Program-made: the position numbers and the translations under genes
Virus record (IMG/VR): IMGVR_UViG_3300021438_000001
Location: 39,453 to 103,452 of that record
Source of the DNA: a virus
Lineage: Duplodnaviria; Heunggongvirae; Uroviricota; Caudoviricetes
Strand: one strand, 5' to 3'
DNA: 64,000 nt
The notes under the pieces: model-generated
What the model saw: only the letters and a program-made list of their open reading frames with translations
Told to the model about the DNA's origin: nothing
The model's database searches: none
Shown here: positions 1 through 62,077 of the stretch, piece by piece
How positions within the stretch are numbered: position 1 is the first letter of the stretch
How the letters are laid out: each line of letters opens with the position of its first letter

Positions 1-1371
1 AAATCAAAACCCGCACCCACACCCAAGCCGAGCGAGGAGGAAGAGGAGGAAGAAAAGACCCCTCCCAAGTCGAGCAAGAAACCTGAGCCTGAAGCCAAGT
101 CTGAGGAAGAAGAATCTGAAGACGAGAGCAAGGGCGGCAGCGGTAAGGGTGAAGAGGAAGAGAAAGAAGACGAGTCCGAGAAGGAGTCTGAAAAAGAACC
201 TGAAGCCGAGAAAGAACCTGAGCCGGAGTCCGAAGAGGAGCCTGAAGACGAGCCGGAAGACGAAACCGAAGCTGAGGCTGAACCCGAACCCGAACCCGAG
301 CCTGAAGAAGACGAAAGCGAAGCGGAGGCTGAGGTCAAAACCGACCCCAGTTCCTCTGAGGAGATCACGCTCGATGAATCGCAAGCCGTATGGGAGAAGC
401 TCGACAAGGACAGCGCGAACGACTTTGACGACGCCATGACCAAGATCATCTCCGACAACACTGCAAAAGTTGCGGAGAACGCCGAGTACCTGATCTTCAC
501 GAAGGACTATGACGTGATCGAGAAGCTGCCAATCGGTAGCGGCTACTCGCCCTCGATGACCAAGAGCCTGATCGAGAAGACGGAACACATGGTTGCGCCG
601 TTGCAGAAAGACCTTGAACGCGCCATCGCTGCCCGTTCAATGGCAACACGCTCTCACGGCCATCGTTCCGGTCGTCTGCATGCACCCAACCTGGCGCGTC
701 TGAAGTTCAATGACGACCGAGTGTTCAGCCGCAAGCAAGAGTCCACGAGCAAGGATGTGGCCGTCGAGCTGGTTGTTGACGCCTCTGGTTCGATGAGCGG
801 CTCCAAAATTCACACCGCAGCACAGGCTGCATTCGCGCTGTCGTCCGTACTGGATCGGATTGGCATCAAGAATGAAGTGATCTGCTTCACGACGAAGGAA
901 CTGGGCTGCTCGCCTCGTGAACTGAGTGACAGCGCCGCCAAGCTCGGGCGCAGCTACTCACGCATGGAAGGTATCTACATGCCAATTCTCAAGGGCTACG
1001 AGGAGCGCATGACCACTGACGTGAAGGAGCGTTTCGGTTGGTTGCCCAACACGCGCATCCTCCGCAGTAACGTGGACGGAGAGAGCGTGGAGATCGCAGC
1101 GCGACGACTGATGGCTCGCCGCGAGGCTGGCAAGATCATGCTGGTGCTGTCTGACGGCTACCCCGCAGCCGCAGGCAACAGCGCCGACCTGAATCGCCAC
1201 CTCAAGCAGAAGGTCAAGGAGATCGCTGCGTCTGGCGTCAACATCGTGGGCATCGGCATTCAATCGGATGCGGTGCGCCAGTTCTACCCCAAGAGTCTCG
1301 TCCTGAACACGGTCGATGACTTGCCGGCTGTGGTGATCAAGGAGCTGCGCCAGCTTCTCATCGCCCAATAA
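1..1371 (+). CDS. CobT-like von Willebrand A (vWA) domain protein, 5'-partial, with an acidic E/P/K-rich low-complexity N-region
   Basis: Frame 1 is open from nt 1 to the stop at 1369-1371; the track splits it into 149..439 (wrong frame) and 436..1371. MIDAS-like motif VVDASGSMSG is present. An (EP)n / E-K-rich tract spans nt 1-420. Sits directly upstream of a CobS-like AAA ATPase. Confidence 0.6.
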   Translation, partial: KSKPAPTPKPSEEEEEEEKTPPKSSKKPEPEAKSEEEESEDESKGGSGKGEEEEKEDESEKESEKEPEAEKEPEPESEEEPEDEPEDETEAEAEPEPEPEPEEDESEAEAEVKTDPSSSEEITLDESQAVWEKLDKDSANDFDDAMTKIISDNTAKVAENAEYLIFTKDYDVIEKLPIGSGYSPSMTKSLIEKTEHMVAPLQKDLERAIAARSMATRSHGHRSGRLHAPNLARLKFNDDRVFSRKQESTSKDVAVELVVDASGSMSGSKIHTAAQAAFALSSVLDRIGIKNEVICFTTKELGCSPRELSDSAAKLGRSYSRMEGIYMPILKGYEERMTTDVKERFGWLPNTRILRSNVDGESVEIAARRLMARREAGKIMLVLSDGYPAAAGNSADLNRHLKQKVKEIAASGVNIVGIGIQSDAVRQFYPKSLVLNTVDDLPAVVIKELRQLLIAQ

Positions 1372-1410
1372 CCAATCTCAGGCGACTTGCAAGGATAAGT
1401 CACAACTGAC

Positions 1411-1439
1411 TTGCAAGTCCTGGGGTCTGTGTCTATCAT
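1411..1439 (+). promoter_or_regulatory. sigma70-like promoter TTGCAA-N17-TATCAT, immediately 3' of the AAGTCAcaacTGACTT palindrome
   Basis: TTGCAA at 1411-1416, 17-nt spacer, TATCAT at 1434-1439; AAGGAG RBS at 1478 and ATG at 1490 follow. Confidence 0.5.
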
Positions 1440-2701: not shown

Positions 2702-3352
2702 ATGAACGTCGCCCAGTATTACAACGAGAACGTGGGCCTCGTCCACGCCGTCACGAAGAAGGGCTTCGCTCGTCTTCAGAAGGCGGGCGTGGCGATGGAC
2801 TATGAAGACGTGTTTCAGGAGATGTCTGTCGTCTTCGTGAAAGCGTGTGAGGGCTTTCAAGCCGACAAAGGCTTTAAGTTCAGCACGTACTTCTTCATTG
2901 CCGCGCAGAACAAGTTGGCGAGCTGGACGAAGAAGATCATCGAGGAGCGCCTTGTCCACAAGGTTGTGAGCATCGAGGAGATGAACCACAACCACGGTGG
3001 CGAGGAGCTTGACCTCGAAAGCATCCTTCCAGGCGACCGCACAACGCCGGAAGACATTGCAAGCGCCAAGCAGTGTGTCGCAGACCTGGCGAAGTCACTC
3101 TCGCCAGTCGCGGCGCAGATCATCGAGTGGATGGTCGAACCCCCGCAAGCTCTGCTGGATGAGTTCAACCGACTGGAAGCTCACGCTGCGTTCGCCCGAA
3201 GCATTGGCTTCGAGCAGCGGTTCAGCGCCCAACTGTCACCGCGCTATGTGGGGCAGTTCTTGGTTCTGTTGGGTGTCAGTGACACTCAAGTCAAATCTGC
3301 CTTGCGTGAGATCAAGTCCTACGCGCAGAACCAAATTGGCAAGTTTTTCTGA
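2702..3352 (+). CDS. sigma-factor-like protein (region-2-like segment)
   Basis: Segment FKFSTYFFIAAQNKLASW resembles sigma70 region 2.2-2.3; translationally coupled to the CobS-like stop. Confidence 0.35.
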   Translation: MNVAQYYNENVGLVHAVTKKGFARLQKAGVAMDYEDVFQEMSVVFVKACEGFQADKGFKFSTYFFIAAQNKLASWTKKIIEERLVHKVVSIEEMNHNHGGEELDLESILPGDRTTPEDIASAKQCVADLAKSLSPVAAQIIEWMVEPPQALLDEFNRLEAHAAFARSIGFEQRFSAQLSPRYVGQFLVLLGVSDTQVKSALREIKSYAQNQIGKFF

Positions 3353-3361
3353 AAGGTAAGT

Positions 3362-4048
3362 ATGGAACTGTTTGAAGGCACACGCGCACCTGAGAACGCA
3401 CCGGCATGTTTCGCCGCACCGAGCATCTTCAGCCGTGATTCGCACGTCTGTCAGGGATGCCCAACCTTCACCCAATGCGCTGACGCTTCGGTGGCTGCGC
3501 TACAAGAACTGCGCAAGATGATTGACGTGAGCGACCTGATGGTTCGCCACTCACGAGCGCGAGAAGTCGCATTGGGGCCAAGCATCAACAAAGCGGCAGA
3601 GACGCCTTCGAATCTGAAGTTTCTCCCCTCGCTCAAGCCGCCTTCGTCGCCCATCACGCGCAAGGTACGCGAGGAGAAGTCGGCATTTGCCATCGACGCC
3701 GACATCCAGACGGTGATCGACGGATTGAACAAGAACCCCGCCACGCTGGTCAAGCGTCTCGCCAAAGCTGGTGTCATCGGACTGGTGCGCGAAGAACTCG
3801 CCGCTGGTCGCAACCCGCTCCAATACGACAAGTGGACTTGGGTAAGCATCGCTTGCGAGAAGCTGACGCAAGGCGGGTTCACAAAACAATCGCTGGTCAT
3901 GGCTTATATGACTAAGCTCGGTTGGAAAGAATCGACCGCCCAATCGCACTTCGTCATCATCACGCCCGCCTTCAAAGCGTTGGGAATCATTGAGGAGACT
4001 GAAGGTAAGTGTGTTGTGAATCCTGCATTGCGTCACGACAATGTATGA
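3362..4048 (+). CDS. hypothetical protein (Cys cluster HVCQGCPTFTQC)
   Basis: 228-aa ORF; RBS AAAGGTAAG before the ATG. Confidence 0.5.
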   Translation: MELFEGTRAPENAPACFAAPSIFSRDSHVCQGCPTFTQCADASVAALQELRKMIDVSDLMVRHSRAREVALGPSINKAAETPSNLKFLPSLKPPSSPITRKVREEKSAFAIDADIQTVIDGLNKNPATLVKRLAKAGVIGLVREELAAGRNPLQYDKWTWVSIACEKLTQGGFTKQSLVMAYMTKLGWKESTAQSHFVIITPAFKALGIIEETEGKCVVNPALRHDNV

Positions 4049-4310
4049 GTACCGCACAACAACCTATTGGAGCGCGACGCTGCCCGATCCACTCACGCCA
4101 CCGGCCCCTGGCTTTCGATTGCGTGATTTTAAGGCGGTAACAACCTCTGAATCGGAATCGCACACGGTAGTGGATAGGATCAGCTCAATTGCCAATTCAA
4201 GTGGCGTCTATTCGGGCATCAATATCCCCTACACGCAAAGCGTCATGAAGAGCAAGACGATTCAGTGGGTGGTCTTGTGGGAAAAATATGTAGAACAGGA
4301 GAATGAATGA
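4041..4310 (+). CDS. hypothetical small protein
   Basis: 89-aa ORF; ATGA overlap with the dnaE start. Confidence 0.25.
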   Translation: MYEYRTTTYWSATLPDPLTPPAPGFRLRDFKAVTTSESESHTVVDRISSIANSSGVYSGINIPYTQSVMKSKTIQWVVLWEKYVEQENE

Positions 4311-7300
4311 ACTTGAATCACATGATGGCAGCGAGGTCTGACTTCAGCATTGGCGAATCAATGCTCCAGATCGAACACCTCGTTGCCGACGCAAAGGAGA
4401 AGGGCTATGAGTCCATCACGCTGATGGATACAATGTCACTGCACGGCATGGTGGACTTCACCAACCGCTGCAAGAAAGCAGGCATCAAGCCGATTATCGG
4501 CTGCCGCATTCGTGTCTACGAAGACCCCACCTACCGCAAGCCGAGCAAGGCAAGCGGTGAGCGCGAGAAGCCCAACCCGAGCTTTGGACTGAAGGTCTAC
4601 ATCAAGACTGAAGCCGGCGTCCACGCGCTGATGAAGCTGCTGTCCAAAGGCTTCACCAACGAGTACTTCTACTATCACGCCAGGGTAGGGCTGGCAGATG
4701 TGCTGACGCTCGGCGCTGATGATGTGGCGGTTTCGACTGGCGACCTGTTCAGCATCTGGCACCTCGAACCGACAGTCGTCCAGAACACCATTGAACAGCT
4801 TCAGAGCCACTTCGGTGCGGCCAACGTCTTCGCTGAGTTGTCCCCGATCAACACGCCCCTGTTCGACACGCTCAACGCAAAGGCGATCACCGCAGCTCGT
4901 GCGAACGCCATGCCGCTGCTGGTGACTTACCCCACCTTCTACCGCGATGCAGATGCTGCGGATAGCCTTGAGGTGCTGAACTGCATTACCTCGAACACCA
5001 AAATGGAAGCCGCCTGGCGCCCCATTCAATTCGTCAAAGACTTCTACATTCACGAGCCGAACAAGCTGGTGGAGCGCATCAAGGGCGCAAGCAAGCGGCT
5101 CGCTGAGTTCTCCGCCACCGCAGATGCAAAGGCGTGGGTTGAAGGGCTGTCCAATGTCGAGAAGCTGGTTGAAGACTGCTCGTTCCAGTTTGCCAAGCTG
5201 CCGGTGTCGCTGCCCAAGATGGCCGACAACGAGTTCTTGGCGCTCGGTAAGAAGTGCATCGAGGGCTGGAAGCGCCGCTTCGAGAACCCCGTTCTCGGTC
5301 ACAAGCCCAATGCGGCTGAACTGAAGGTCTACCAAGAGCGGCTGAACTACGAGCTTGGCGTTCTTAAGAAGATGGGCTTCGCAGGCTACTTCTTGCTCGT
5401 GGAAGACCTCGTGATGTGGGCAAAGAAGAACAACATCATCGTTGGCCCAGGTCGTGGTTCGGTGGGTGGTTCGCTGGTCGCCTACCTGATCGGCATCACA
5501 GACGTTGACCCCATCCGATTCGACCTCCTGTTCGAGCGTTTTATCAACCCCGAACGTCTTGACTTGCCAGATGCTGACTTGGACTTCATGTCTTCGAAGC
5601 GCCATCTGGTGATCGAGTACTTGACGGCAAAGTACGGTCTGGATCGCGTTGCAGGCATTTCGAACTACTCGACGCTTGCGAGTGCCTCCGCGCTGCGTGA
5701 CAGTGGTCGCATGTACGGTCTGAATGGCATCGAGCTGACCGCTACCAAACTTGTCCCCAAAGAACACGGTCAATCGTTTTCACTGACCGATGCAGCGAAG
5801 GCTGTACCTGAGATCGACCTGTTCAGGAACGAACATCCGGAAATCTGGAAGCATGCCTTGAACCTCGAAGGGGCAATGCGAGCGTTCGGTCGCCACGCCG
5901 CTGGCGTGGTCGTCGCTGGTGAGCCGCTGGTCAACCGTGCCGTCGTGGAGACGCGAGGGGATGACGCATCGCCAATCGTGTCTTGGGACAAGCGAGTGGT
6001 TGAAGACTGGGGCTTGGTCAAGATGGATATTCTGGGCCTCTCCACGCTCGACGTGCTGGAGATCGCCCGTCAGTACATCAACGACCGTCACGGCGTTGCC
6101 ATTGACTACATGCAACTGCCGCTTGAAGAGACGGACATTATGGAAGCCTTCGGTCGTGGTGACACAACCGGCGTCTTCCAGTTCGAATCGCCAGGCATGA
6201 AGAAGCTGCTCCGTGACCTTGCTGTCGGCGGTACGCTGACCTTCGAGGACATTACCGCTGCGACTGCTCTGTATCGTCCAGGCCCGATGGACTCAGGTCT
6301 GATGGACGACTACGTTGCGATCAAGCAAGGGGTGAAGTCGCCGTACTACGACCACCCCAACATGGAACCCGCGCTTCGCTCCACCAACGGCGTGATCGTC
6401 TATCAGGAGCAGGTGATGCAGGTGGCGGTCGATCTTGCTGGCTTCACTCGCGCAGAAGCCGACCATCTGCGTAAAGCGATGGGCAAGAAAGACAAAGACA
6501 AGATGGCGGAAATGCGCCAGAAGTGGATCGACGGCTGTCTCGCCACGTCCGGACTCGATGACCGCACCGCCGGCAACATCTTCGATAAGATCGAAGCCTT
6601 CGCAGGTTACGGTTTCAACAGAAGCCACGCCGTTGAGTATTCCATCATCAGCTACTGGACGATGTGGGTGCGAGTGCGCTACCCCGCCGAGTACTTCGCC
6701 GCCTGTATGTCGATTGTGGACGAAGAGAAGCTGCCAGGGCTGGTGTCGGACGCTCGGGAGTACAAGATTCAGGTGATGCCACCTGATCTGAACACGTCCT
6801 CGCATCGGTACACCATCCCAGACGACAAGACCATCTTGGCACCGTTCTCTGCGGTCAAGGGCATCAGCGAGAACACCGCCTTGCGTATCGTTGAACTGCG
6901 AGAGCGCAACCGCACTTGGAAGCTGGAGCGCGTGAAGAAGAAGCGTGACGGCACGACGGAGAACATCTACGAGCTGGATGAGACTTCGCCGGTCAAGGGG
7001 CGCTTCGACTCGCCTGATGAGTTCGTGATGGCTGCCGCGCAGCCAGGCTCGAAGGTGAACAGCAAGGTGGTGGAGAACCTGCGTCTCGTGGGTGCGTTTG
7101 CAGCCATTGACCCCGCAGAGCTGTCACCGCTGCACTTCAGCCGCCGCAAAGCCCAGATGGAGCTTCTGCCTGGACTGATCATTGACGATGTGAAGGCTGA
7201 CCGCACGACCGATCTGAGCGCCGGCTTCGTCCGCACCAAGATCATCGAGGTGGTTCAGGACTACAAGAAGTGCAGTGGCTGCACTCTGGCTGGCGAACCA

Positions 7301-7777
7301 CATCCGAGCATTCGCTGCAAGACGAACGTCCGCTTCATGGTGGTGTCCGACTGTCCGACCTGGCAGGAGGAGAAGAAAGACAAGCTGCTCGAAGGCGACT
7401 CGGCTCAGTACATCAAGCAGGCGATCAAAGACGCCGGCCTGTCAGTGACTGACGGCTACTACACCACGCTGGTCAAGGCGAAGAAGAGCGACAAGTTCTT
7501 GGCGAACGAACAGATCAACGGCTGTGCCAAGTTCATCGACCGCGAGCTGGAGCTGATCAAGCCTGCGATCATCGTTGCGCTCGGTTCGGCCACGATCAAG
7601 AAGTTCTTGCCGTCCATCAAGGGCGGAACCGCTGAGTTGGCCGGCAAGTCGTTCTACGACCCCAAGCTCGATGCCACGATTGTCTGTGGCATCAACGCGC
7701 AGCAGATTGGCTTCGATCCGACCAAGCAAGACGTTTTGGATGAGGTGTTCCGCAAAGTCGCCGACATTCTCGCCTAA
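4307..7777 (+). CDS. dnaE: DNA polymerase III alpha subunit (DnaE-type replicase) with a C-terminal family-4 UDG-like domain
   Basis: PHP domain at the N-terminus. Core motif GFAGYFLLVEDLVMWAKKNNIIVGPGRGSVGGSLVAYLIGITDVDPIRFDLLFERFINPER. The last ~170 aa (from CSGCTLAGEPHP ... KPAIIVALGSATIKKF) match the family-4 uracil-DNA glycosylase fold pattern. Confidence 0.9.
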   Translation: MNLNHMMAARSDFSIGESMLQIEHLVADAKEKGYESITLMDTMSLHGMVDFTNRCKKAGIKPIIGCRIRVYEDPTYRKPSKASGEREKPNPSFGLKVYIKTEAGVHALMKLLSKGFTNEYFYYHARVGLADVLTLGADDVAVSTGDLFSIWHLEPTVVQNTIEQLQSHFGAANVFAELSPINTPLFDTLNAKAITAARANAMPLLVTYPTFYRDADAADSLEVLNCITSNTKMEAAWRPIQFVKDFYIHEPNKLVERIKGASKRLAEFSATADAKAWVEGLSNVEKLVEDCSFQFAKLPVSLPKMADNEFLALGKKCIEGWKRRFENPVLGHKPNAAELKVYQERLNYELGVLKKMGFAGYFLLVEDLVMWAKKNNIIVGPGRGSVGGSLVAYLIGITDVDPIRFDLLFERFINPERLDLPDADLDFMSSKRHLVIEYLTAKYGLDRVAGISNYSTLASASALRDSGRMYGLNGIELTATKLVPKEHGQSFSLTDAAKAVPEIDLFRNEHPEIWKHALNLEGAMRAFGRHAAGVVVAGEPLVNRAVVETRGDDASPIVSWDKRVVEDWGLVKMDILGLSTLDVLEIARQYINDRHGVAIDYMQLPLEETDIMEAFGRGDTTGVFQFESPGMKKLLRDLAVGGTLTFEDITAATALYRPGPMDSGLMDDYVAIKQGVKSPYYDHPNMEPALRSTNGVIVYQEQVMQVAVDLAGFTRAEADHLRKAMGKKDKDKMAEMRQKWIDGCLATSGLDDRTAGNIFDKIEAFAGYGFNRSHAVEYSIISYWTMWVRVRYPAEYFAACMSIVDEEKLPGLVSDAREYKIQVMPPDLNTSSHRYTIPDDKTILAPFSAVKGISENTALRIVELRERNRTWKLERVKKKRDGTTENIYELDETSPVKGRFDSPDEFVMAAAQPGSKVNSKVVENLRLVGAFAAIDPAELSPLHFSRRKAQMELLPGLIIDDVKADRTTDLSAGFVRTKIIEVVQDYKKCSGCTLAGEPHPSIRCKTNVRFMVVSDCPTWQEEKKDKLLEGDSAQYIKQAIKDAGLSVTDGYYTTLVKAKKSDKFLANEQINGCAKFIDRELELIKPAIIVALGSATIKKFLPSIKGGTAELAGKSFYDPKLDATIVCGINAQQIGFDPTKQDVLDEVFRKVADILA

Positions 7778-7796
7778 CGAATAAGTCATAACTGAC

Positions 7797-7825
7797 TTGT
7801 AACCCCTGTTTCACGACACTAACAT
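7797..7825 (+). promoter_or_regulatory. sigma70-like promoter TTGTAA-N17-TAACAT, 3' of the AAGTCAtaacTGACTT palindrome
   Basis: Same architecture as the promoter at 1411; GAAGGAG RBS at 7847 and ATG at 7861 follow. Confidence 0.45.
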
Positions 7826-7860: not shown

Positions 7861-8694
7861 ATGTCGAACCCTGAGATCGCAGTTGAAGACGCGGAACTTG
7901 CCGCGCTGATGGACGAGCTGGAGGCAGAGAACGAGAAGATCGTTGCTGCCGCCAAGACTGCCGAACCTGAAGCGCCTGTCGCGGTCGCTGCTGCCGAACC
8001 CGAACCCGAACCCGAACCCGAACCGGAACCCGAACCTGAGCCTGAGCCTGTCGCGGTCGCCGAGAAGCTGCCAGACCCTGCGCCCGAACCCGCAAAGGTC
8101 GCCGCCAGCAAGCCGCGCCCCACGCCTGAAGTGGTGCAAGAACCGTCTGACGAGACTGAAGCCATCAGCTTCTCGGCCGATGTGCCCACGACCACGAAAG
8201 CCAAGCTGAACTTCTCCATCGACGTGGTGCAGTTCAACAAGGACACCAAGCTGACCGAAGCCACGCTCGACGCTTGCATGATCGAGCAATCCGGTCTGCG
8301 AGCCTATTACGGTGCCCAGGCTGCGAACGCTGAAGCCCAACACGCTCGTCTGAAGGCGCGTTTTGAGGTTCTCGAAGCCAAGCTCTACGACGAGGCTCGC
8401 AAGTCTCTGGCTGCATCCGGCGAGAAGACCACCGAGAAGATGGTGGAGAACGCTGTGAAGCTGAACCCGCGCTGGATCGCTGGCAAGAATGCCGTGATCG
8501 AAGCCGAAACCATCGCAGCCGTCAACAAGTCGTTGGTTGCCTCTCTGGGCGACCGCCGCGACATGATGATTCAGCTCGGTGCCGACCGCCGCGAAGAGTA
8601 CAAGGGCGCTGCTCGTGTGCTGGCGGAAAAAGACGCTGCCGCATCCCTGAAAGACCGCGCACAGGCGGCCTTCCAGAATCGCAGCGTTCAATGA
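7861..8694 (+). CDS. acidic (EP)n-repeat protein, hypothetical
   Basis: 11 consecutive Glu-Pro repeats (nt ~7996-8061), pI-acidic N half, coiled-coil-like C half; start trimmed to the ATG with RBS GAAGGAG. Confidence 0.55.
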   Translation: MSNPEIAVEDAELAALMDELEAENEKIVAAAKTAEPEAPVAVAAAEPEPEPEPEPEPEPEPEPVAVAEKLPDPAPEPAKVAASKPRPTPEVVQEPSDETEAISFSADVPTTTKAKLNFSIDVVQFNKDTKLTEATLDACMIEQSGLRAYYGAQAANAEAQHARLKARFEVLEAKLYDEARKSLAASGEKTTEKMVENAVKLNPRWIAGKNAVIEAETIAAVNKSLVASLGDRRDMMIQLGADRREEYKGAARVLAEKDAAASLKDRAQAAFQNRSVQ

Positions 8695-8705
8695 TACGAA
8701 CGGGA

Positions 8706-8735
8706 ATGACAGATAAGTCATTCCTGACGTATAAT
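8706..8735 (+). promoter_or_regulatory. sigma70-like promoter ATGACA-N18-TATAAT whose spacer contains ATAAGTCAttccTGAC
   Basis: -35 at 8706-8711, -10 TATAAT at 8730-8735; upstream of the gp32-like gene. Confidence 0.5.
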
Positions 8736-12422: not shown

Positions 12423-12833
12423 ATGATTTTAGAGTCCGCTTTGCTATGTATGGCCCTGAACATTTATCACGAAGCTCGTGGTGAAATGATTCCAGGGCAA
12501 TACGCTGTCGCCCAAGTGACGATGAATCGAGCTGGCAACAGTGAGAACGTCTGCAAGACCGTTACCGCCAAGAATCAATTTTCTTGGACGAAGACGATGG
12601 TGCAGAAGAAGAGCGGACGCTTTTACCTGAAAGACAACGGACTGCCGTTCGATGACTACGCCTGGCAGAAGGCAACACGAATCGCGCAAGTGGTTCTAAC
12701 TCAGCGCGTTGGAGACTTCACGCACGGTGGCGCGACTGCATACCACGCGACCAACGTGTATCCAATTTGGCGTCACAGTTATGTGAAGACCGCAACAATC
12801 GGTCGCCACATTTTTTATCGTGAAAAGACATAA
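12423..12833 (+). CDS. SleB-like cell-wall hydrolase (Hydrolase_2 family)
   Basis: ALNIYHEARGE ... AVAQVTMNR signature; RBS AAAGGTAAG. Confidence 0.7.
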   Translation: MILESALLCMALNIYHEARGEMIPGQYAVAQVTMNRAGNSENVCKTVTAKNQFSWTKTMVQKKSGRFYLKDNGLPFDDYAWQKATRIAQVVLTQRVGDFTHGGATAYHATNVYPIWRHSYVKTATIGRHIFYREKT

Positions 12834-12854
12834 GTCATTACTGACAGGAGAAAC

Positions 12855-13910: not shown

Positions 13911-15856
13911 ACATCACCAAGGTCGTCATCGACAATTTCCTGACACTGAAGTCAGCCACCATCGAACTGTCTGATCGCGGCTTGCTGCTGATTCAGGGGG
14001 CGAACAAAGACGATTCGTCCGCCGATTCGAACGGCGCAGGCAAGTCGTCCATCGCTGACGCAATCTGTTGGGGTATCTTTGGTGTCACGGCTCGCGGCGT
14101 CGCCACAGATGCGGTGGTCAACAAGCTGGCGAAGAAAGACTGCGCAGTGGAGGTCTACTTGCAGGACGGCACGGATGAGTACCGCATCACGCGCTACCGC
14201 AAGCACTCAGTCCACAAGAATCAGACCTTTGTCCACAAGAAAGACCCGTCGCCTGGCACCGTGCCAATCGACATGCACAAGGGCACCGAGAAGGAAACTC
14301 AAGAGGTGATCAACCGCCTGATCGGTTGCACTCTCGAAGTCTTCCAAGCTGCGGTGTATGCCGGTCAAGAGAAGATGCCTGATCTGCCAGCGATGACGGA
14401 CAAACAACTGAAGCTCATGATCGAGGAGGCTGCCGGCGTCGAGGTGCTGTCACGAGCGCACACAAAGGCGCGTGAAAAGCTCAACGAAGCCACTCGCACC
14501 CAGGCTGAGATCAAGACCGCCATGTCTGTCAAAGAGTCCTTGCGCGACTCGTTGGCCGTAGAGTTCAAGAATGCCACTGATGAAGCGGCCAATTTCGAAG
14601 CGCAGCGCAAGCCCAACGCAAAGGCGGAGCTTGCGAAGGCAGTGCCGTTGCAGGCCACGCTGAACGAGGTGGAAGAGAAGATCAAGACTGAACTGGCGGT
14701 TGATCGCGGCGCGGAGCTGCTGACCATTGCCAAGACGTTCGCTGACCTCAAGCACGAGCGCGACAAGCTGGACACGCTCAACGCCGAAGCTGTCGTCAAG
14801 TCCAAAGCTCTGGCAACTGCGGAGTCGGTGGCTCGCTTGCTCAAGACAGCCCACACCAGCGCGGTAGAGGCTCTGCGAACCGTCGATGACAAAGTTGGCC
14901 AGCCTTGCGGTGAGTGCGGCAAAGCATACTGCGAACACGACATTGAAGCGGCCAAGAAGCTGCGCGAGGCTGACCTTGCCGATGCAACTGCGAAGCTGCG
15001 GGCCGCTGCTACGCAATTGAAGAACGCGAAAACCGAATCAGATGCAGCTCAGAACGCTGCCACTGCGTATAAGTCAACAATGACTGATGTAACCGTACTG
15101 GCTGCGCGTCAAGCGGTTTTGCAGCGTGAGCTGGACGAGATCAAGACCATGCAGACCCAGGCGGCAACCCTTCAGACGCAGATTGACAAGATCAAGGCGA
15201 ACGCGAAGGTGTTCCTGACACGCGAGAACACCTACAACAAGGTGCGCGAGTCCATCGAAGCGCGTCACAAAGCGGCAGCTCAAGAGGTTTCGGATATGGC
15301 TGCAAAGCTGATTGACGCTGAGAAGGCGGTTGCGCTTGCGGACAACGTGGTCAAGGTCTTCGGCCCAAGCGGTGTACGGGCGCACGTCCTCGACACTGTG
15401 ACGCCATACCTGAACGACCGGACGAGCCACTACCTGTCGTCGCTGGCTGACGGCAACATCAAGGCGGTCTGGAACACGCTGACCAAGAACGCGAAGGGCG
15501 AGCTGAAGGAGAAGTTCAGCATCGAAGTCGTGAACGAGAAGGGTGCCGAATCGTTCGAGGGTCTATCAGGCGGTGAGAAGCGCAAGGTGCGCCTGTCTAC
15601 CGCGATGGCGCTGCAAGACATGGTTGCCTCTCGCGCTACCAAGCCGATCAACATCTTCGTCGCCGACGAGGTGGATCACGCCCTCGATGAGTCCGGTCTT
15701 GAGCGCCTGATGACGGTGCTGAACGACAAGGCAAAAGAGCGCGGTACGGTGCTGGTGATCAGCCACAACTCTCTGTCTGATTGGATCGACAACGTGATCA
15801 CGGTGACGAAGGAAAGCGGCTATGGAACGGTTTCAGGAGCCACCAGTGCCAGCTAA
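13907..15856 (+). CDS. Rad50/SbcC-like ATPase (T4 gp46-like)
   Basis: Walker A GANKDDSSADSNGAGKSS, CxxC zinc hook (QPCGECGKAYCEHD) in the coiled coil, ABC signature LSGGEKRKV, Walker B IFVADEVD; ATGA-coupled start. Confidence 0.85.
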   Translation: MNITKVVIDNFLTLKSATIELSDRGLLLIQGANKDDSSADSNGAGKSSIADAICWGIFGVTARGVATDAVVNKLAKKDCAVEVYLQDGTDEYRITRYRKHSVHKNQTFVHKKDPSPGTVPIDMHKGTEKETQEVINRLIGCTLEVFQAAVYAGQEKMPDLPAMTDKQLKLMIEEAAGVEVLSRAHTKAREKLNEATRTQAEIKTAMSVKESLRDSLAVEFKNATDEAANFEAQRKPNAKAELAKAVPLQATLNEVEEKIKTELAVDRGAELLTIAKTFADLKHERDKLDTLNAEAVVKSKALATAESVARLLKTAHTSAVEALRTVDDKVGQPCGECGKAYCEHDIEAAKKLREADLADATAKLRAAATQLKNAKTESDAAQNAATAYKSTMTDVTVLAARQAVLQRELDEIKTMQTQAATLQTQIDKIKANAKVFLTRENTYNKVRESIEARHKAAAQEVSDMAAKLIDAEKAVALADNVVKVFGPSGVRAHVLDTVTPYLNDRTSHYLSSLADGNIKAVWNTLTKNAKGELKEKFSIEVVNEKGAESFEGLSGGEKRKVRLSTAMALQDMVASRATKPINIFVADEVDHALDESGLERLMTVLNDKAKERGTVLVISHNSLSDWIDNVITVTKESGYGTVSGATSAS

Positions 15857-17220: not shown

Positions 17221-17250
17221 CAGTCAGTCACCCGTGACTAGACTATAAGC

Positions 17251-17739: not shown

Positions 17740-17818
17740 CGTCCTTATATGGTAAGTCACGACTGACTGCCGTAGAATCACCGTCCCCCGATTTCTAAAC
17801 AACAACAAAAGGAGTTCT

Positions 17819-20475: not shown

Positions 20476-20567
20476 CAAGCGGTCGAACAGGCAAGTTGAG
20501 CGGATAAGTCATGAGTGACTTGCATTCCCGTCAAAACTTATATAAGATTACGACATTGAAAGATTGA

Positions 20568-20644
20568 AGCGGGTTAGCTCAGTTGGTTAGAGCGCCGGAT
20601 TCATAATCCGGAGGCCGCAGGTTCGAGTCCTGTGCCCGCAACCA
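20568..20644 (+). tRNA. tRNA-Met (anticodon CAT; could be Ile-lysidine type)
   Basis: Cloverleaf read by hand: D arm GCTCAGTTGGTTAGAGC, anticodon loop TTCATAA, T arm GCAGGTTCGAGTCCTGT, 3' ACCA; position 1:72 is an A-A mismatch. Confidence 0.7.
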
Positions 20645-20645
20645 T

Positions 20646-20721
20646 TCCCTAGTAGCTCAGTTGGTAGAGCAATGGACTGTTAATCCATGTGTCGGTGGTT
20701 CGAACCCACCCTGGGGAGCCA
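20646..20721 (+). tRNA. tRNA-Asn (GTT)
   Basis: Acceptor TCCCTAG/CTGGGGA, anticodon loop CTGTTAA, T loop GGTTCGAAC, 3' GCCA. Confidence 0.8.
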
Positions 20722-20891: not shown

Positions 20892-20894
20892 GTT

Positions 20895-21328: not shown

Positions 21329-21404
<76 letters not shown>

Positions 21405-21576: not shown

Positions 21577-21670
21577 AATTTTGAAGCAATGCCGTTGCGT
21601 TGCCTGCTGATTTAGCAGAGTCCATCGCTACAATGTATAAGTCACGAGTGACATTCAAGAAGGAGAAACT

Positions 21671-24076: not shown

Positions 24077-24127
24077 CCCAGATTTCCATCGCTAAACTGC
24101 ATAAGTCATCACTGACATAAAGGAGAA

Positions 24128-26265: not shown

Positions 26266-26341
26266 GGAATAAGTCACGGGTGATAAAAAGCCCGTGACTT
26301 TCTCGCTATGATAAGAGCAAGAGTTATTCAGTGAGGAGATT

Positions 26342-27232: not shown

Positions 27233-27259
27233 CGATTCGGCGAGTACAATAAGTCACCA

Positions 27260-27442
27260 GTGACAATGCAGGAGCCGACTTTGGACTTCGACCACGTAGA
27301 GATCAAGACCCACGCCCAAGCCGTCGCCGATAGAGGCGGCTTTTCCAGCGAGTGCCCATACGACCAGGGTATCGCCTATGACCTGTGGATGAACTACTTC
27401 TACAACCGAATCATGTGGCTGATGGGAGAGTCGTCGGAGTGA
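27260..27442 (+). CDS. hypothetical small protein
   Basis: ATG immediately after an ATAAGTCAccagTGACA box. Confidence 0.3.
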   Translation: MTMQEPTLDFDHVEIKTHAQAVADRGGFSSECPYDQGIAYDLWMNYFYNRIMWLMGESSE

Positions 27443-27527
27443 TGCAAGTCTCCTGCGGGAATGATTGTTTCCCCGTTGCTTGCATTGAATAATTACATCA
27501 GTCGCTTATGACTGAAAGGAAGTAGAA

Positions 27528-29453: not shown

Positions 29454-29485
29454 GCACATCAGTCATTACTGACAGAAAGGAACGT

Positions 29486-37837: not shown

Positions 37838-38596
37838 ATGACCAAAGCAAAGAAAACCACCAAAGCCGAAACCACCTTTCACATGGCCGGCACCCAGTCG
37901 AATATCGGTGACGCTATCGTGAACGATGGCATCCTCGCCGAAGCTCTGCTCGATGAGTTGGCGCTCGAAGACGCCGAGATCGTAGAGAGCCATGAAGTCG
38001 AAGACGCCATCGAAGCTGTCGCTGCCAAAGCTGACGTTGCTGACGCTGACGCCGAAGTGACCGCAGCGCCCAAGAAAGAGAAGAAGGCGAAAGCTCCGAA
38101 AGAGCCGAAAGAACCGAAAGCTCCTCGCATCACCAGCATCACGCACAAGCCTGGCGACCGTCTGGTGGCGCTGCTCGGTGACAAGTCGCACCTCCACTTC
38201 TTCATGTCGGACTCTGCCGAAGCGAACGAGGTGCGCGTCAACTCCTTCGTGGACGCCATGAACACTCGTGATGCCATCGCTGACAAGGTGAAGGACAAAG
38301 CGATCATGCTGTTCACTTGGCTCAAGTCGGAGAAGGGCGCTGACAGCCTCAACGAAGTCATGAAGCGCGCCTTCGAAGTTCTCAAGAAGGATGGCGAGCT
38401 GACTTCGGGCAAGAACGGCAACCTTCAGAGCAATCTGCTCGCCAAGCCGTACAGCCCAGGCACCGCAGCGTCTCAGGCGAATCAGATGTTCATGCTGTTC
38501 CCTCTGCTCGGCATCACGCAGCGCGAGAAGGGCAAGATGGTCGCTAACCCTGACAGCACCGTCCTGACTGTGGTCAACGCTCGTTTGGGCCTGTAA
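37838..38596 (+). CDS. hypothetical protein with acidic N half and K/E/P-rich linker (KKEKKAKAPKEPKEPKAPR)
   Basis: AAGGAG RBS. 460-nt regulatory leader with repeats upstream and a strong terminator downstream suggest high expression. Confidence 0.5.
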   Translation: MTKAKKTTKAETTFHMAGTQSNIGDAIVNDGILAEALLDELALEDAEIVESHEVEDAIEAVAAKADVADADAEVTAAPKKEKKAKAPKEPKEPKAPRITSITHKPGDRLVALLGDKSHLHFFMSDSAEANEVRVNSFVDAMNTRDAIADKVKDKAIMLFTWLKSEKGADSLNEVMKRAFEVLKKDGELTSGKNGNLQSNLLAKPYSPGTAASQANQMFMLFPLLGITQREKGKMVANPDSTVLTVVNARLGL

Positions 38597-38602
38597 GTCA
38601 CG

Positions 38603-38632
38603 ACTGAAGGAGGGCGCCTCGCGCCCCTCTTT
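38603..38632 (+). terminator. rho-independent terminator
   Basis: GGAGGGCGCCTCGCGCCCCTC hairpin followed by TTTCATTC. Confidence 0.55.
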
Positions 38633-40231: not shown

Positions 40232-40329
40232 TTGGCGATCTGCGTGGGTAAGTCACTGCTGAGTATTGCATGTCCAATACTCGGTGGTGAAAATTCAATT
40301 GTCGATTTTGACTTAACCGGAGAACGAAT

Positions 40330-41468: not shown

Positions 41469-41551
41469 TTGGGTAAGTCACAAGTGACGTTGCAAGTCCA
41501 ATAGTCACTTGTGACAATTAACTCATCAGCAACAAAGACAAGGAGAACGCG

Positions 41552-42646: not shown

Positions 42647-42724
42647 GTCGCCTGCGTTTTCGGTTGTTTGTCCATAAGTCAGTGGTGACAATAGATATAA
42701 GACAAACAAACGAAGGAGCGATTC

Positions 42725-43816: not shown

Positions 43817-43901
43817 CGCAAGATCGCCTGCATTTTCTGTTGTAGGCGCTTAAGTCACTGGTGACAATACAAATACCGCAACACGTTTTGAAAGGATCGT
43901 T

Positions 43902-44823: not shown

Positions 44824-45032
44824 TGGGAATGTGCGACCCTAAAGCTATTCGCAATGGCAAAGCCTGGGCTGACGTGGTGAACGAGCCAGGCTTCATCACT
44901 CAAGCGATGAAAGACCTCCACGTCGAGCGGCATGGGATTGTGAAAGGCGTAGTGATTGGCACCATTTCAAGTCCATCGCTTGCAAGTTACAGTAAGTCAT
45001 CGGTGAATGAAACAGAAAGGACTACACCATGA
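44820..45032 (+). CDS. hypothetical small protein
   Basis: ATGA-coupled. Confidence 0.3.
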   Translation: MMGMCDPKAIRNGKAWADVVNEPGFITQAMKDLHVERHGIVKGVVIGTISSPSLASYSKSSVNETERTTP

Positions 45033-48080: not shown

Positions 48081-48332
48081 ATGAACTTCCGCCAATCAAC
48101 CTTCGTCTACACCATAGCAACAACCATCATTGGATTCGTTCTCGCAGCGTTGTGTGCGTTCGCACTCAGCTCGGAGACTGGTGGTGGTTACTTGCACATC
48201 TTCGGATTGTTCTTCTCAGGTGGACTGGTCATCGGTTCCTGGGTAAATGCTTTGCACGTTCTCGGTATGAGTGACTTCGCCGAAACCGACGAGTTCGGCA
48301 TGACGTACCCCAAAGTCGGTGAAACCGCATAA
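48081..48332 (+). CDS. small membrane protein
   Basis: 3 TM segments. Confidence 0.4.
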   Translation: MNFRQSTFVYTIATTIIGFVLAALCAFALSSETGGGYLHIFGLFFSGGLVIGSWVNALHVLGMSDFAETDEFGMTYPKVGETA

Positions 48333-48357
48333 GTCATCAATGACATAGGAGAACATC

Positions 48358-54640: not shown

Positions 54641-54716
54641 ATTATAGTTCAGTCAGCAATGACTAACAAATCCATTAGGCCCGTCCGTGAGTAATTCCAA
54701 AAACATCAAGGTGGAG

Positions 54717-59649: not shown

Positions 59650-60027
59650 ATGAATCAATGTAATGATGTAAATGTCGCGGGACAAAAATTCCCCCAGAAC
59701 GGGGAAGACCTCGACACGCGCATCGCTCGGCTCCTGGGGCTGCGGGCGGAAGTGCAGGACGAGATCATGAAGGTCTGGCCCTGGGACGTGGCGCCTGACG
59801 AGTCCAATTGGTCTGTCGGTACTCGATATACCAAGGAACCAGCAAAGACGGCTGAACTGCTCGCAGAACGCGGCATTCAGCACTTCATTCGCAACAAGGG
59901 TCCGGTGGTCTTCTGCGTCTTCGGCGCAGGAGGGTGGCTGGACGAGACTCCGCTATTCGAGAACGAAGATGACGCGCTCGCCGCAGCTCTTTGGATGGTT
60001 CTCGTAAATAAGTCACGAATGACTTGA
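59650..60027 (+). CDS. hypothetical protein
   Basis: AT-rich leader; 125 aa. Confidence 0.4.
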   Translation: MNQCNDVNVAGQKFPQNGEDLDTRIARLLGLRAEVQDEIMKVWPWDVAPDESNWSVGTRYTKEPAKTAELLAERGIQHFIRNKGPVVFCVFGAGGWLDETPLFENEDDALAAALWMVLVNKSRMT

Positions 60028-62034: not shown

Positions 62035-62077
62035 TCCTTGACATCAGTCACCAGTGACGTATAAGATAGGCGCCCAA

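Follow-up and report, generated by a model that had tools for sequence, protein, structure and literature searches.

A promoter-phased 20-bp dyad as the probable operator of an element-encoded regulator in a family of phage-plasmids

The 64-kb window analysed here, that is, the whole stretch of viral DNA, carries ~25 exact and degenerate copies of a palindrome, GTCA-N4-TGAC, and a complete genome of ~110 kb would probably carry at least 40. We interpret the element, with a probability of roughly 60%, as the operator of a sequence-specific dimeric regulator that is encoded by the phage-plasmid itself, likeliest an Xre/434-like protein, and that would silence most lytic promoters. An earlier note on this DNA had proposed the operator of a phage-encoded global regulator, and that proposal is supported by the enrichment of the element, its rigid dyad structure, its phasing with promoters and its conservation across a family of relatives.

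Inspection of the window reveals 22 exact copies of GTCA-N4-TGAC against 1.58 ± 1.23 expected from dinucleotide shuffles, where the largest shuffled count was 5. The longer consensus ATAAGTCANNNNTGAC gives 44 strand-hits at up to two mismatches, with 3.35 expected, and the top over-represented 8-mer of the window is the left half-site ATAAGTCA, found 13 times against 0.73 expected and 0 times on the opposite strand. Non-coding DNA makes up 13.4% of the window and holds 18 of the 22 exact copies (binomial P = 8e-13). The palindrome is therefore repeated far above chance and lies mostly between genes, as the earlier note had described, and every position in its list carries a copy; the copies at 15069, 17223, 27497 and 54648 are additional to that list (Table 1). 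The right arm is degenerate (TGAT, TGAA or TGAG) at 26269, 38593, 40248 and 44992, and those at 12255, 15904, 35049 and 56210 are probably chance or coding matches.

The full element is a 20-bp dyad, ATAAGTCA-N4-TGACTTAT, with half-sites of 8 bp each and with conserved positions confined to -4 to +13. Its central 4 bp are fixed in length and free in sequence, carrying 0.02-0.26 bits, and orthologous copies keep the arms while the N4 varies. In 787 kb of pooled related DNA, the N4 spacing is represented by 222 copies against 10.4 expected, and the other spacers within N0-N10 give 14-33 copies each, near background. GTCA-N6-TGAC is likewise near background (25 versus 10), and the enriched core is solely 4-N4-4, or 5-N4-5 with flanks. 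Near-perfect 20-bp dyads are present in relatives. The copies had been taken to be always plus-oriented; the bias of the flank stands, in that ATAAGTCA occurs on one strand only, but a true orientation does not, since the core is palindromic, the ATAA flank alone is asymmetric and symmetric copies exist. Where nothing constrains the downstream flank, it is the mirror image of its upstream counterpart, as at 54648, at position 7922 of contig L048 and in Massilia (ATAAGTCAccacTGACTTAT), and in the Rhizobium phage V1VFA-S operator copies are equal on both strands. The apparent single orientation arises because the downstream flank overlaps promoter hexamers or a ribosome-binding site.

Table 1. 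Copies of the dyad in the window, with their placement and surroundings. SD, Shine-Dalgarno sequence; centres are relative to the transcription start; L-numbers denote related contigs.
Positions	Sequence	Strand	Placement	Surroundings and orthologous copies
1395..1414	ATAAGTCAcaacTGACTTGC	.	Abuts -35 TTGCAA (1411-1416)-N17- -10 TATCAT (1434-1439); centre -41.5	Upstream of CobS/MoxR-like ATPase, sigma-like and DnaE genes; orthologue L001 8716 keeps both arms, N4 changed
7781..7800	ATAAGTCAtaacTGACTTGT	.	-35 TTGTAA (7797-7802)-N17- -10 TAACAT (7820-7825); centre -41.5	Upstream of gene 7861-8694; orthologue L001 14837 retains motif and -10 but not -35
8713..8732	ATAAGTCAttccTGACGTAT	.	Fills spacer of ATGACA (8706-8711)-N18-TATAAT (8730-8735); centre -19.5	Promoter of gp32-like SSB gene 8798-9616; retained in L001 15772
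12830..12849	ATAAGTCAttacTGACAGGA	.	Right flank reaches SD of SbcD-like gene 12855	TAA is stop codon of 12450-12833; N4 differs in orthologue L001 19864
15069..15088	ATAAGTCAacaaTGACTGAT	.		Near-perfect; within SbcC-like gene 13907-15856
17223..17242	GTCAGTCAcccgTGACTAGA	.	Fills spacer of CTGACA (17217-17222)-N16-TAGACT (17239-17244); centre -18.5	Upstream of ORF 17251-17739
17752..17771	GTAAGTCAcgacTGACTGCC	.	In spacer of TGGTAA-N17-TAGAAT (17773-17778); centre -23.5	Upstream of class II ribonucleotide reductase gene 17819
20504..20523	ATAAGTCAtgagTGACTTGC	.	-35 TTGCAT (20520-20525)-N17- -10 TAAGAT (20543-20548); centre -41.5	Promoter of nine-tRNA cluster (20568-21576)
21637..21656	ATAAGTCAcgagTGACATTC	.	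Between -10-like TACAAT (21629-21634) and SD; centre ~+5.5	Gene 21671
24101..24120	ATAAGTCAtcacTGACATAA	.	SD-adjacent	11 nt 5' of gene 24128
26269..26288	ATAAGTCAcgggTGATAAAA	.	Upstream of TATGAT (26307-26312)	Degenerate (right arm TGAT); gene 26342
27249..27268	ATAAGTCAccagTGACAATG	.	SD-adjacent	Upstream of ORF 27281
27497..27516	ATCAGTCGcttaTGACTGAA	.		Degenerate; 15 nt 5' of gene 27528 (Nmad5-domain protein)
29458..29477	ATCAGTCAttacTGACAGAA	.	SD-adjacent	Upstream of gene 29486-29794
38593..38612	GTAAGTCAcgacTGAAGGAG	.		Degenerate; TAA is stop codon of 37838-38596; followed by terminator-like hairpin
40248..40267	GTAAGTCActgcTGAGTATT	.	Upstream of TTGCAT (40266-40271)-N17-GAAAAT; centre ~-43.5	Degenerate; gene 40330
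41473..41492	GTAAGTCAcaagTGACGTTG	.	Just 5' of -35 TTGCAA (41490-41495); centre ~-42.5	First of a pair, N4 caag; paired layout also at L048 3287/3333
41500..41519	AATAGTCActtgTGACAATT	.	Spacer and -10 region of promoter shared with 41473 copy	Second of the pair, N4 cttg, the reverse complement of the first's; gene 41552
42674..42693	ATAAGTCAgtggTGACAATA	.	Followed by TATAAG and SD	Gene 42725
43850..43869	TTAAGTCActggTGACAATA	.		Upstream of gene 43902 (DUF6876)
44992..45011	GTAAGTCAtcggTGAATGAA	.	Overlaps -10-like TACAGT (44988-44993); centre ~+1.5	Degenerate
48329..48348	ATAAGTCAtcaaTGACATAG	.	SD-adjacent	TAA is stop codon of upstream ORF; gene 48358
54648..54667	TTCAGTCAgcaaTGACTAAC	.	Overlaps start of TTGCAA (54620-54625)-N17-TATAGT (54643-54648); centre +2.5	Symmetric; divergent region between UvsW-like helicase gene (53057-54598, minus strand) and ParB/Noc-like gene (54717)
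60008..60027	ATAAGTCAcgaaTGACTTGA	.	-35 TTGAAT (60024-60029)-N17- -10 TACACT (60047-60052); centre -41.5	Promoter of TerS-like and TerL genes
62043..62062	ATCAGTCAccagTGACGTAT	.	Fills spacer of TTGACA (62038-62043)-N18-TAAGAT (62062-62067); centre -21.5	Promoter of portal gene 62078; GTAA-type orthologues L105 9965 and L103 9943

Register offsets, counted from the G of GTCA, indicate that the dyad is phased with sigma70-type promoters. A TAnnnT hexamer starts exactly at +35 in 39 of 221 pooled copies and at +12 to +14 in 64 of them; when orthologues are collapsed these become 25 and 58 of 220 clusters, respectively, over a background of 1-2 per offset. Hexamers resembling a -10 element occur at +12/+13/+14, +35 and -8 only, and Shine-Dalgarno strings peak at +15 to +17 across the 221 pooled copies. 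At promoters, the dyad abuts the -35 (centre -41.5), fills the 17-bp spacer (-18.5 to -21.5) or lies over the transcription start. A further placement is directly 5' of ribosome-binding sites in short intergenic gaps, where the SD-adjacent copies have no recognisable promoter. The contexts reported earlier (5' of the -35, within the spacer and 5' of the Shine-Dalgarno) are thus real, and the coupling to sigma70-like promoters takes the form of discrete registers sharper than had been described. Within the window, four to six copies adopt the -41.5 register, including those with G at 1399, 7785, 20508 and 60012, and five of the eight stringent non-coding sigma70-like promoters bear a copy. Operators accompany textbook promoters in relatives as well (TGAC-TTGACA-N17-TATAGT and TTGCAG-N17-TAGAAT). 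In V1VFA-S they directly follow the rhizobial -10 (gCTATAA) and cover +1, and the capsid-region promoters of this phage are bracketed by two operators ~50 bp apart, an arrangement of the kind that repressors use.

The dyad is conserved in more than 200 related contigs, the first 2.0 Mb of which contain 547 copies, and the relatives that bear it include stand-alone contigs of ~112-114 kb from cultured bacteria. A variant with GTAA arms characterizes the Acinetobacter plasmid pABTJ2, V1VFA-S and, more loosely, SSU5, whose related dyads are TAAGTA-type operators. GTAA-N4-TTAC substitutes in a concerted manner for GTCA-N4-TGAC at orthologous sites in L028, L103, L105, V1VFA-S, pABTJ2 and several isolates, which gives a GTAA-type operator, ATAAGTAA-N4-TTACTTAT, beside the GTCA-type described above. 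CAGG-N4-CCTG, seen in L039 and BUCTxx99, was rejected as a variant because all its copies lie in coding sequence, and no comparable dyad was found in Nickie or BUCTxx99. Because the dyad or its variants are common to relatives that include pABTJ2, V1VFA-S and SSU5, the window is placed among the SSU5/AB-type phage-plasmids. Its TerL is 75% identical to the TerL of ~110-kb Acinetobacter plasmids and 60-80% identical to those of ~945 plasmid records, ~1,000 PLSDB records have this TerL in common, and the group has been described as phage-plasmids (PMC7969092, PMC12509600). A nucleotide search of a phage collection with the window returned no match, and the cultured relatives found by protein searches were all distant.

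The likeliest binder is an Xre/434-like immunity-repressor homologue predicted to be encoded just outside the window. In relatives its gene keeps a place ~5.5 kb from DnaE, upstream of it and on the other strand; where a relative's sequence extends to the syntenic position the gene is nearly always there, the closest relative included. A tblastn search gave no match inside the window; judged by synteny with a relative that shares 87% identity in DnaE, the gene would lie ~1.25-1.7 kb to the left of window position 1, divergent from the CobT/CobS-sigma-DnaE operon. The protein (QNH71710.1 in V1VFA-S, WP_000833465.1 in pABTJ2) has profile matches to PDB 8bny, an 'immunity repressor protein' (E = 4e-5), and to 434 Cro (E = 0.013). 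In the gene's neighbourhood, inspection by eye of the translation of a divergent 67-aa ORF (L151 9612-9815) revealed no obvious HTH motif.

The residue aligned to the first position of the recognition helix co-varies with the operator type. In 47 genomes with Lys or Arg at this position, 208 sites have both arms GTCA and 41 have a GTAA arm, and in 10 genomes with Asn or Thr the corresponding counts are 9 and 59. The odds ratio is 33, or 17 without V1VFA-S, figures in which the sites are not independent and ancestry is partly a confounder; Asn/Thr types stand at no fewer than five places in the protein tree, in line with several independent switches. pABTJ2 obeys the rule, and L202 is a partial exception, with an Asn-type protein and mostly GTCA sites. 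Asn/Thr-type genomes favour asymmetric GTAA/GTCA hybrid operators (21 of 23 sites), a preference not explained by a simple homodimer. Genomes with hybrid operators include L221, L192 and L176. In SSU5, no homologue of the Xre-type protein is detectable, though the related dyad is present.

From these patterns we infer that a protein binds the dyads, which protein it is and that its effect is to repress. The Xre/434-like protein would bind the operators as a dimer and, once bound, would keep RNA polymerase off most lytic promoters or stop read-through there, including the promoters that serve replication, the tRNAs, packaging and the head. In this way the element, ~110 kb in size, would be held silent while it is carried as a plasmid prophage. 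Some sites may activate instead, as -41.5 is the position of a class II activator and the -35 at 7797 is not kept in a relative.

A rather unlikely rival reading has the same operator bound by a dimeric phage-encoded factor that works mainly during lytic development and in both directions, activating in class II fashion where the dyad is centred at -41.5 and repressing from the spacer and +1 placements, so that it would time gene classes and not maintain lysogeny. The sharpness of the -41.5 register, with its 25 independent clusters beside the four named window sites, is consistent with such a role, as is the closest relative's retention of motif and -10 but not of the -35 at 7797, and CI-type repressors are known to activate from ~-42, for example at lambda PRM. 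The registers are, however, interleaved within single modules: TerS/TerL has the -41.5 placement, the portal gene the spacer placement, the next head gene -41.5 plus +5 and the next again the spacer, which does not resemble a set of temporal classes. Good hexamers (TTGACA-N17-TATAGT/TACAGT) are already in place at several of the -41.5 promoters, and most phased copies occupy occluding positions (58 + 15 clusters versus 25).

Returning to repression by the Xre-type protein, we advance only tentatively the wider idea that the dyad and this repressor form an immunity-specificity code across the whole SSU5/AB-type phage-plasmid superfamily. Were this true, Lys/Arg versus Asn/Thr at the start of the recognition helix would set the operator base pair that is read and hence hetero-immunity, the strictly hybrid GTAA/GTCA operators of some lineages would reveal asymmetric or heteromeric binding, undescribed for this repressor class, and one protein might silence at spacer and +1 sites while activating at -41.5 sites. 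Phage-plasmids of the SSU5, pHCM2, pKpn and AB types, ~110 kb in size, are common as replicons in Salmonella, Klebsiella, E. coli, Yersinia and Acinetobacter baumannii, and resistance genes are found on some of them. For these groups a 2024 review names no regulator of lysis or lysogeny (PMC11652158), and literature searches on the motif strings and on SSU5 regulation found nothing relevant. An operator, a candidate repressor and a predicted specificity residue make the lysis/lysogeny switch of this large, clinically relevant family directly testable, with V1VFA-S, pABTJ2 and SSU5 as cultured systems at hand, and allow promoters, regulons and immunity groups to be predicted for plasmids and metagenomic contigs by the hundred from their sequences.

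Other proteins encoded in the window were considered as the binder. Among ~90 window proteins scanned against Pfam and PHROG, the sigma-like protein, two ParB_N proteins and a weak winged helix stood out, with no other clear transcription factor; a PHROG 'DNA binding protein' at 35891 proved to be a DenV-like glycosylase. The protein at 29486, named earlier as a possible regulator, has no significant DNA-binding match (T4 MotA N-domain, E = 1.1). A second earlier candidate is an improbable binder: the small winged-helix protein 59253-59585, of the phrog_900 family, whose gene lies shortly before TerS. The protein is conserved in all groups, SSU5 included, its recognition helix and Arg-rich wing are the best-conserved parts, the helix differs between GTCA- and GTAA-type clades, and helix and wing together could recognize half-sites of 8 bp that are AT-rich on their outer side. 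Yet helix and operator type are discordant twice: L097-L101/L110 have a very different recognition helix (GRSALHCSLKFL) with GTCA operators, and SSU5_130 has a GTCA-type helix (TKQSMQFSIRAL) with TAAGTA-type operators. Family matches are weak (HTH_27, E = 0.003; MarR, E ~1), and the gene lies within an operator-controlled late operon.

Equally improbable is that the dyads are loading or binding sites of the ParB/Noc/KorB-like protein 54717-55346 or its paralogue 55557, serving as dispersed centromere-like sites and for a KorB-style global silencer. The 54717 protein is genuinely of ParB/Noc type (Pfam ParB_N, 3.5e-13; Noc 7ng0, E = 3e-9; Spo0J, 4e-8; KorB, 0.017), its gene is conserved in all groups, SSU5 included, and has a symmetric dyad copy over its promoter start, and class I operators of KorB lie immediately upstream of the -35. 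Known sites of ParB, KorB and Noc are contiguous 13-16-bp palindromes with a specific centre, unlike the dyad, whose centre is free and whose half-site centres are ~12 bp apart. The spacer-filling and +1 registers, moreover, suggest direct steric action at each promoter, which argues against ParB-type sites.

We regard as very improbable that the left half, ATAAGTCA, is a promoter element for the sigma-like protein 2702-3352, the remaining regulator suggested earlier. This protein has a sigma-70 region 2 and a C-terminus that reads as sigma4.2-like, ATAAGTCA is strand-biased, and -10 elements of ECF sigmas typically contain GTC. Such a factor would need a bipartite -35/-10, but the element is a rigid 4+4+4 dyad with no conserved partner element 16-17 bp from either arm and less than 0.15 bits of information upstream. 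Left unexplained would be the invariance of the right arm at a distance of 4 bp, the 20-bp dyads and the symmetric strand counts of V1VFA-S, and SSU5 has the dyad but seems to be without the sigma gene at the syntenic position.

The chances are just as slim for an RNA hairpin acting as a processing, stability or translational-control site beside ribosome-binding sites, an alternative that the earlier note had allowed and that is now disfavoured. The element is an inverted repeat, many copies lie 8-20 nt 5' of a Shine-Dalgarno, and in the GTAA variant both arms change together with pairing preserved. However, the -41.5 and spacer copies lie upstream of the start of the very promoter with which they are phased, the arms are conserved as sequence beyond mere pairing, and N4 alone is enriched, yet the loop sequence is free. 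Most copies would form a 4-bp stem of ~-2.7 kcal/mol, and 18% of random 20-mers equal the site-mean stability; Rfam matches were to tRNAs only. The rigid 4-N4-4 dyad and its phasing with promoter hexamers led us to drop several further readings: CRP/FNR geometry, ECF-sigma promoters, nick sites, REP-like elements and PeSL-like cassettes.

Among known systems, class II sites of CRP/FNR are, like the element here, dyads centred at -41.5 beside the -35, a position taken here by a subset only (25 of 220 clusters). The GTCA-N4-TGAC core is 2 bp narrower than TGTGA-N6-TCACA or TTGAT-N4-ATCAA, most copies occupy positions where activation is impossible, and the scans of window proteins revealed no member of the CRP family. 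The RK2 KorB/KorA regulon (PDB 8qa8 KorB, a weak match) also has one palindrome at many plasmid promoters in discrete position classes, one of them next to the -35, and the window, too, encodes a protein of the ParB family. KorB binds an uninterrupted 13-bp palindrome, whereas the present dyad has a free centre, its spacer and +1 registers prevail and the ParB-like protein is not the best-supported binder. The C1 repressor of P1 silences a ~100-kb plasmid prophage through many dispersed asymmetric 17-bp operators, with late genes controlled indirectly through Lpa. The two systems share a plasmid prophage, one repressor and operators scattered over a genome of ~100 kb; C1 is, however, an unrelated protein, and here structural-gene promoters carry the operator directly.

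Stoperators of Cluster A mycobacteriophages (L5 gp71) are asymmetric 13-bp sites that are bound by a monomer, depend on orientation and act on elongation (PMC9283540, PMC6550527). As here, dozens of repressor sites lie in short gaps genome-wide, near stop and start codons, and site consensus and repressor co-evolve into specificity groups (PMC9283540, PMC6550527). The many copies in short intergenic gaps throughout the genome are a stoperator-like trait; the asymmetry and single orientation of stoperators are not shared by a 20-bp dyad that is phased with promoter hexamers, has equal strand counts in V1VFA-S and owes its orientation to hexamer overlap. The 434/lambda CI-Cro proteins (Xre/HTH_3) likewise recognize a dyad whose outer half-sites are conserved and whose centre, fixed in length, is not contacted, and their operators likewise lie over the -35, -10 or +1. 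The candidate repressor matches 8bny and 434 Cro at the HTH, with specificity that tracks the first recognition-helix residue. Against the handful of operators in one immunity region of 434 or lambda, ~25 operators in 64 kb here extend across promoters for replication, tRNA, packaging and head genes. Half-sites here are long, at 8 bp, the element is carried as a plasmid, and binding is predicted from sequence.

Inspection of the window for the palindrome GTCA-N4-TGAC reveals 22 copies where 1.58 are expected and where dinucleotide-preserving shuffles reach a maximum of 5, so that the frequency claimed in the earlier note lies far above chance. With up to two mismatches, ATAAGTCANNNNTGAC gives 44 strand-hits (3.35 expected), and the most over-represented 8-mer, ATAAGTCA, occurs 13 times against 0.73 expected and never on the other strand. 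Non-coding DNA, as called from a self-trained gene map, holds 18 of the 22 exact copies while making up only 13.4% of the window (P = 8e-13); four of the window copies supply, with their TAA, the stop codon for the gene before them. Every position listed by the earlier note does hold a copy, those at 26269, 38593, 40248 and 44992 being degenerate in the right arm, but the list had overlooked 15069, 17223, 27497 and 54648. As to whether late structural operons lack the element, which the earlier note had asked to be checked, copies do occur beyond portal, at conserved places within the structural module, and the element is therefore not confined to early genes.

Spacer length was analyzed in 45 related loci pooled with the window (787 kb). 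Enrichment is confined to the 4-bp spacer, with 222 copies versus 10.4 expected, the remaining spacers from N0 to N10 giving 14-33. The pooled logo, a-T-(A/C)-A-GTCA-N4-TGAC-T-(A/T), carries almost no information at its four central positions and is better conserved in the left flank than in the right; in the closest relative, orthologous copies differ in the N4 but have retained both arms. Where no other signal shares the downstream flank, that flank mirrors the upstream one (see table), and the element is therefore a 20-bp dyad with 8-bp half-sites. Two pairs of copies bracketing a promoter, at window 41473-41519 and at 3283-3348 of L048, a contig that extends the window, have mutually reverse-complementary 4-bp centres (caag/cttg and ccga/tcgg), so that their 12-mers are exact inverted repeats. 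Paired copies in Rhizobium phage V1VFA-S differ, being direct repeats (gtgc/gtgc).

To relate the dyad to promoters, offsets of the hexamer TAnnnT were counted from the G of GTCA. Among 221 pooled copies, 64 have it starting at +12, +13 or +14 and 39 at exactly +35, with 0-5 copies at neighbouring offsets. Collapsing orthologues into 220 clusters leaves 24, 26 and 8 clusters at +12, +13 and +14, 25 at +35 and an extra peak of 15 at -8, over a background of 1-2 per offset. At +13, the 16-bp motif plus one base forms an exact 17-bp spacer (e.g. TTGCAG-ATCAGTCAcgacTGACg-TAGAAT). At +35, the -35 hexamer directly follows TGAC (e.g. TGAC-TTGACA-N17-TATAGT) and the dyad is centred at -41.5, which is also a classic activator position. 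A copy lies in the core region of 5 of the 8 stringently defined sigma70-like promoters on the + strand of the window's non-coding DNA. The three contexts described earlier (before the -35, in the spacer, before the Shine-Dalgarno) all recur among the window copies; for the Shine-Dalgarno-adjacent ones, roadblock action is a possibility by analogy with stoperators. The dyad had also been called always + oriented. This is true of the conserved ATAA, which always lies upstream because an ideal dyad has TTAT as its right outer flank, letters that can also serve as the TT in a -35 or as the TAT in a -10; the core itself is palindromic, and the bias is explained by this overlap with promoter hexamers. 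About 1.8 kb past the window's right end, at L048 4323-4385, a terminator-like hairpin (GGCGGGT-N7-ACCCGCC-TTTTT) stands directly 3' of an operator-filled promoter. The predicted transcription start falls inside its 5' arm, so that termination would affect transcripts reading through but perhaps not those started locally.

Dyad copies and other features. Window copies are named by the start of the 20-bp site or by the G of GTCA, 4 bp apart.
Feature	Location	Detail
Dyad centred at -41.5	window 1399, 7785, 20508, 60012	
Dyad in promoter spacer	window 8717, 17227, 62047	
Dyad near +1 to +6	window 21641, 44996, 54652	
Dyad immediately 5' of Shine-Dalgarno	window 12834, 24105, 27253, 29462, 48333	no recognisable promoter
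Mirrored-flank copy	window 54648	divergent region
Mirrored-flank copy	L048, upstream of capsid gene	GTAAGTCAcgccTGATTTAC
Mirrored-flank copy	Massilia	ATAAGTCAccacTGACTTAT
Mirrored-flank copy	L105 (related locus)	ATAAGTAAgtgtTTACTTAT
Hybrid operators	L221, L192, L176, L203 (related loci); V1VFA-S 75212, 75809	
Degenerate copy in longer hairpin	window 26269-26305	GTCACGGG-N10-CCCGTGAC, then TTTCTC; looks terminator-like
String TCCATCGCT upstream of three Shine-Dalgarno-adjacent copies	window 21607-21636, 24075-24100, 44966-44991	then -10-like TACAAT, TAAACT, TTGCAAG...; a possible second motif linked to promoters, perhaps one for the phage sigma factor
DnaE-type polymerase	window 4307-7777	C-terminal uracil-DNA-glycosylase-superfamily domain, residues 1004-1105
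Sigma-like gene, 228-aa protein, 89-aa ORF	window 2702-4310	228-aa protein conserved (phrog_3616; V1VFA-S V110 homologue)
HNH endonuclease gene	window 25001-25636	phrog_374, E = 5e-78; amid nucleotide-metabolism genes; likely a mobile homing element
Low-GC region	window 46000-50300	GC 47-49% vs ~55%; few confident genes, single operator copy
9-mer CCTTATACA	window 49995, 50029, 50209; also 17688, 17921, 52709	with the low-GC region, could mark iterons, an origin or acquired cargo
Tandem AACCCGAACC	window 280-295, 7994-8035	coding hexanucleotide repeats in two different genes

GTCA-N4-TGAC is at least ten-fold enriched in almost every related locus, at GC contents of 50-65%, with 547 copies in the first 2.0 Mb of these loci. 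In one subclade, ATAAGTAA-N4-TTACTTAT takes its place at orthologous positions, with unchanged promoter registers (related loci L028, L103 and L105; Acinetobacter, Paracoccus, Chelativorans and Qipengyuania loci; Acinetobacter plasmid pABTJ2; V1VFA-S). In V1VFA-S, AAGTAA-N4-TTACTT occurs 24 times in 100 kb versus ~0 expected, equally on both strands. Many copies follow a rhizobial-type -10 (gCTATAA) by 1-2 nt and thus cover the start site, and two head-region promoters each lie between two operators ~50 bp apart; both layouts are repressor geometries. The phage-plasmid SSU5 has ~13 copies of a looser TAAGTA-N6-TACTTA. Such concerted change at all sites of a genome implies a co-evolving, element-encoded reader. 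Neither dyad type was seen in L141 (Ancylobacter), L039, L191, nickie (L134) or BUCTxx99 (L135), which may lack the system or follow a specificity of a third kind and would give the repressor hypothesis a natural control.

Window proteins include no clear transcription factor except the sigma-like protein, two ParB_N proteins and a weak winged helix. V105 of V1VFA-S, a 130-aa Xre-type helix-turn-helix protein, adjoins RepC and an RHH-like gene and has an operator copy on each side. Nearly all relatives reaching that far have a homologue on the strand opposite DnaE, ~5.5 kb upstream of it; that of pABTJ2 is annotated as a helix-turn-helix transcriptional regulator. The closest relative's gene maps ~1.25-1.7 kb left of window position 1, outside the window, and is divergent from a small ORF with a degenerate operator in its promoter spacer. 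The Xre-type profile matches 8bny 'immunity repressor protein' (E = 4e-5) and 434 Cro (E = 0.013), and the alignment places one variable residue opposite the first of the Cro recognition helix, Gln28, a base-contacting residue. Across 57 distinct Xre-type proteins, Lys or Arg at this position accompanies 208 sites with both arms GTCA versus 41 with a GTAA arm, and Asn or Thr accompanies 9 versus 59 (odds ratio 33, or 17 with V1VFA-S removed). Asn/Thr types arise at at least five places in the protein tree; pABTJ2 (Asn) obeys the rule, and the related locus L202 is a partial exception. No Xre homologue was detectable in SSU5, where the dyad is present. From these sequence comparisons we infer that the Xre-type protein is the candidate reader, together with its binding, its identity as binder and the sign of regulation. 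Asn/Thr-type genomes also carry hybrid operators, with one ATAAGTAA half (GTAA) and one ATAAGTCA half (GTCA) in either orientation, at 21 of 23 sites. This excess is far above what relaxed specificity would give and is not explained by a simple homodimer; it suggests that binding is asymmetric or heteromeric.

Other readers fare less well. The winged-helix protein at 59253, proposed in the earlier note, varies between clades, yet is discordant twice with operator type: L097-L101 and L110 combine a different helix with GTCA operators, and SSU5_130 combines a GTCA-type helix with TAAGTA-type operators. That the dyad instead acts as an RNA hairpin, the earlier alternative, is unlikely, since a promoter's start lies downstream of the copies phased with it, the arm sequence itself is conserved, the stem in most copies has 4 bp (~-2.7 kcal/mol), the mean stability of the sites is already reached by 18% of random 20-mers, and Rfam matches are tRNAs only. 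The ParB/Noc-like protein is a genuine family member, but proteins of this kind are known to bind contiguous palindromes whose centre is specific, and we consider it an improbable reader. Also unlikely is a promoter for the sigma-like protein, another earlier candidate, which leaves the right arm and the dyad unexplained and finds no partner element at 16-17 bp in the pooled alignment of copies.

The window encodes a DnaE-type polymerase with UDG domain, a CobS/MoxR-like ATPase and a sigma-70-region-2 protein; gp32-like SSB, 5'-3' exonuclease, UvsW-like helicase, RecA-like and SbcCD-like proteins; class II ribonucleotide reductase, ThyX, nine tRNAs and RNA ligase; and two ParB_N proteins, TerS-like, TerL and portal. 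In pABTJ2 the polymerase and glycosylase parts are separate genes with a NUMOD4-domain gene between them. In most relatives, the sigma-like, 228-aa and 89-aa trio is flanked by the CobS-like ATPase and DnaE; the sigma gene seems to be absent from this place in SSU5. No deposited phage matches the window at the nucleotide level. Its TerL shares 75% identity with the TerL of ~110-kb Acinetobacter baumannii plasmids (pABTJ2, for example) and 60-80% with those of ~945 plasmid records (Klebsiella, Escherichia, Salmonella, Yersinia and others), the enterobacterial ones of which we take to be SSU5/pHCM2-type groups. Relatives form stand-alone 112-114-kb contigs in cultured Massilia, Magnetospirillum, Ancylobacter and Paracoccus assemblies. 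Pfeifer et al. describe an Acinetobacter-specific 'AB' phage-plasmid group, with P1, N15 and SSU5 also known phage-plasmids (PMC7969092), and a report on the Rhizobium relatives B1VFA and V1VFA-S notes their parA, parB and repC and regards them as possible prophage-plasmids (PMC12509600). Given these TerL matches, stand-alone contigs and reported prophage-plasmids, the window is part of a phage-plasmid of the SSU5/AB-type superfamily.

The hybrid operators and the candidate single-residue specificity switch are the undescribed features of this system. The searchable literature yielded no description of the dyad operator or of lysogeny control in SSU5/AB-type phage-plasmids. Its proposed mode of control is of a known kind, in which one repressor and many dispersed operators silence a large temperate element, as do P1 C1, the Cluster A stoperators and RK2 KorB/KorA.
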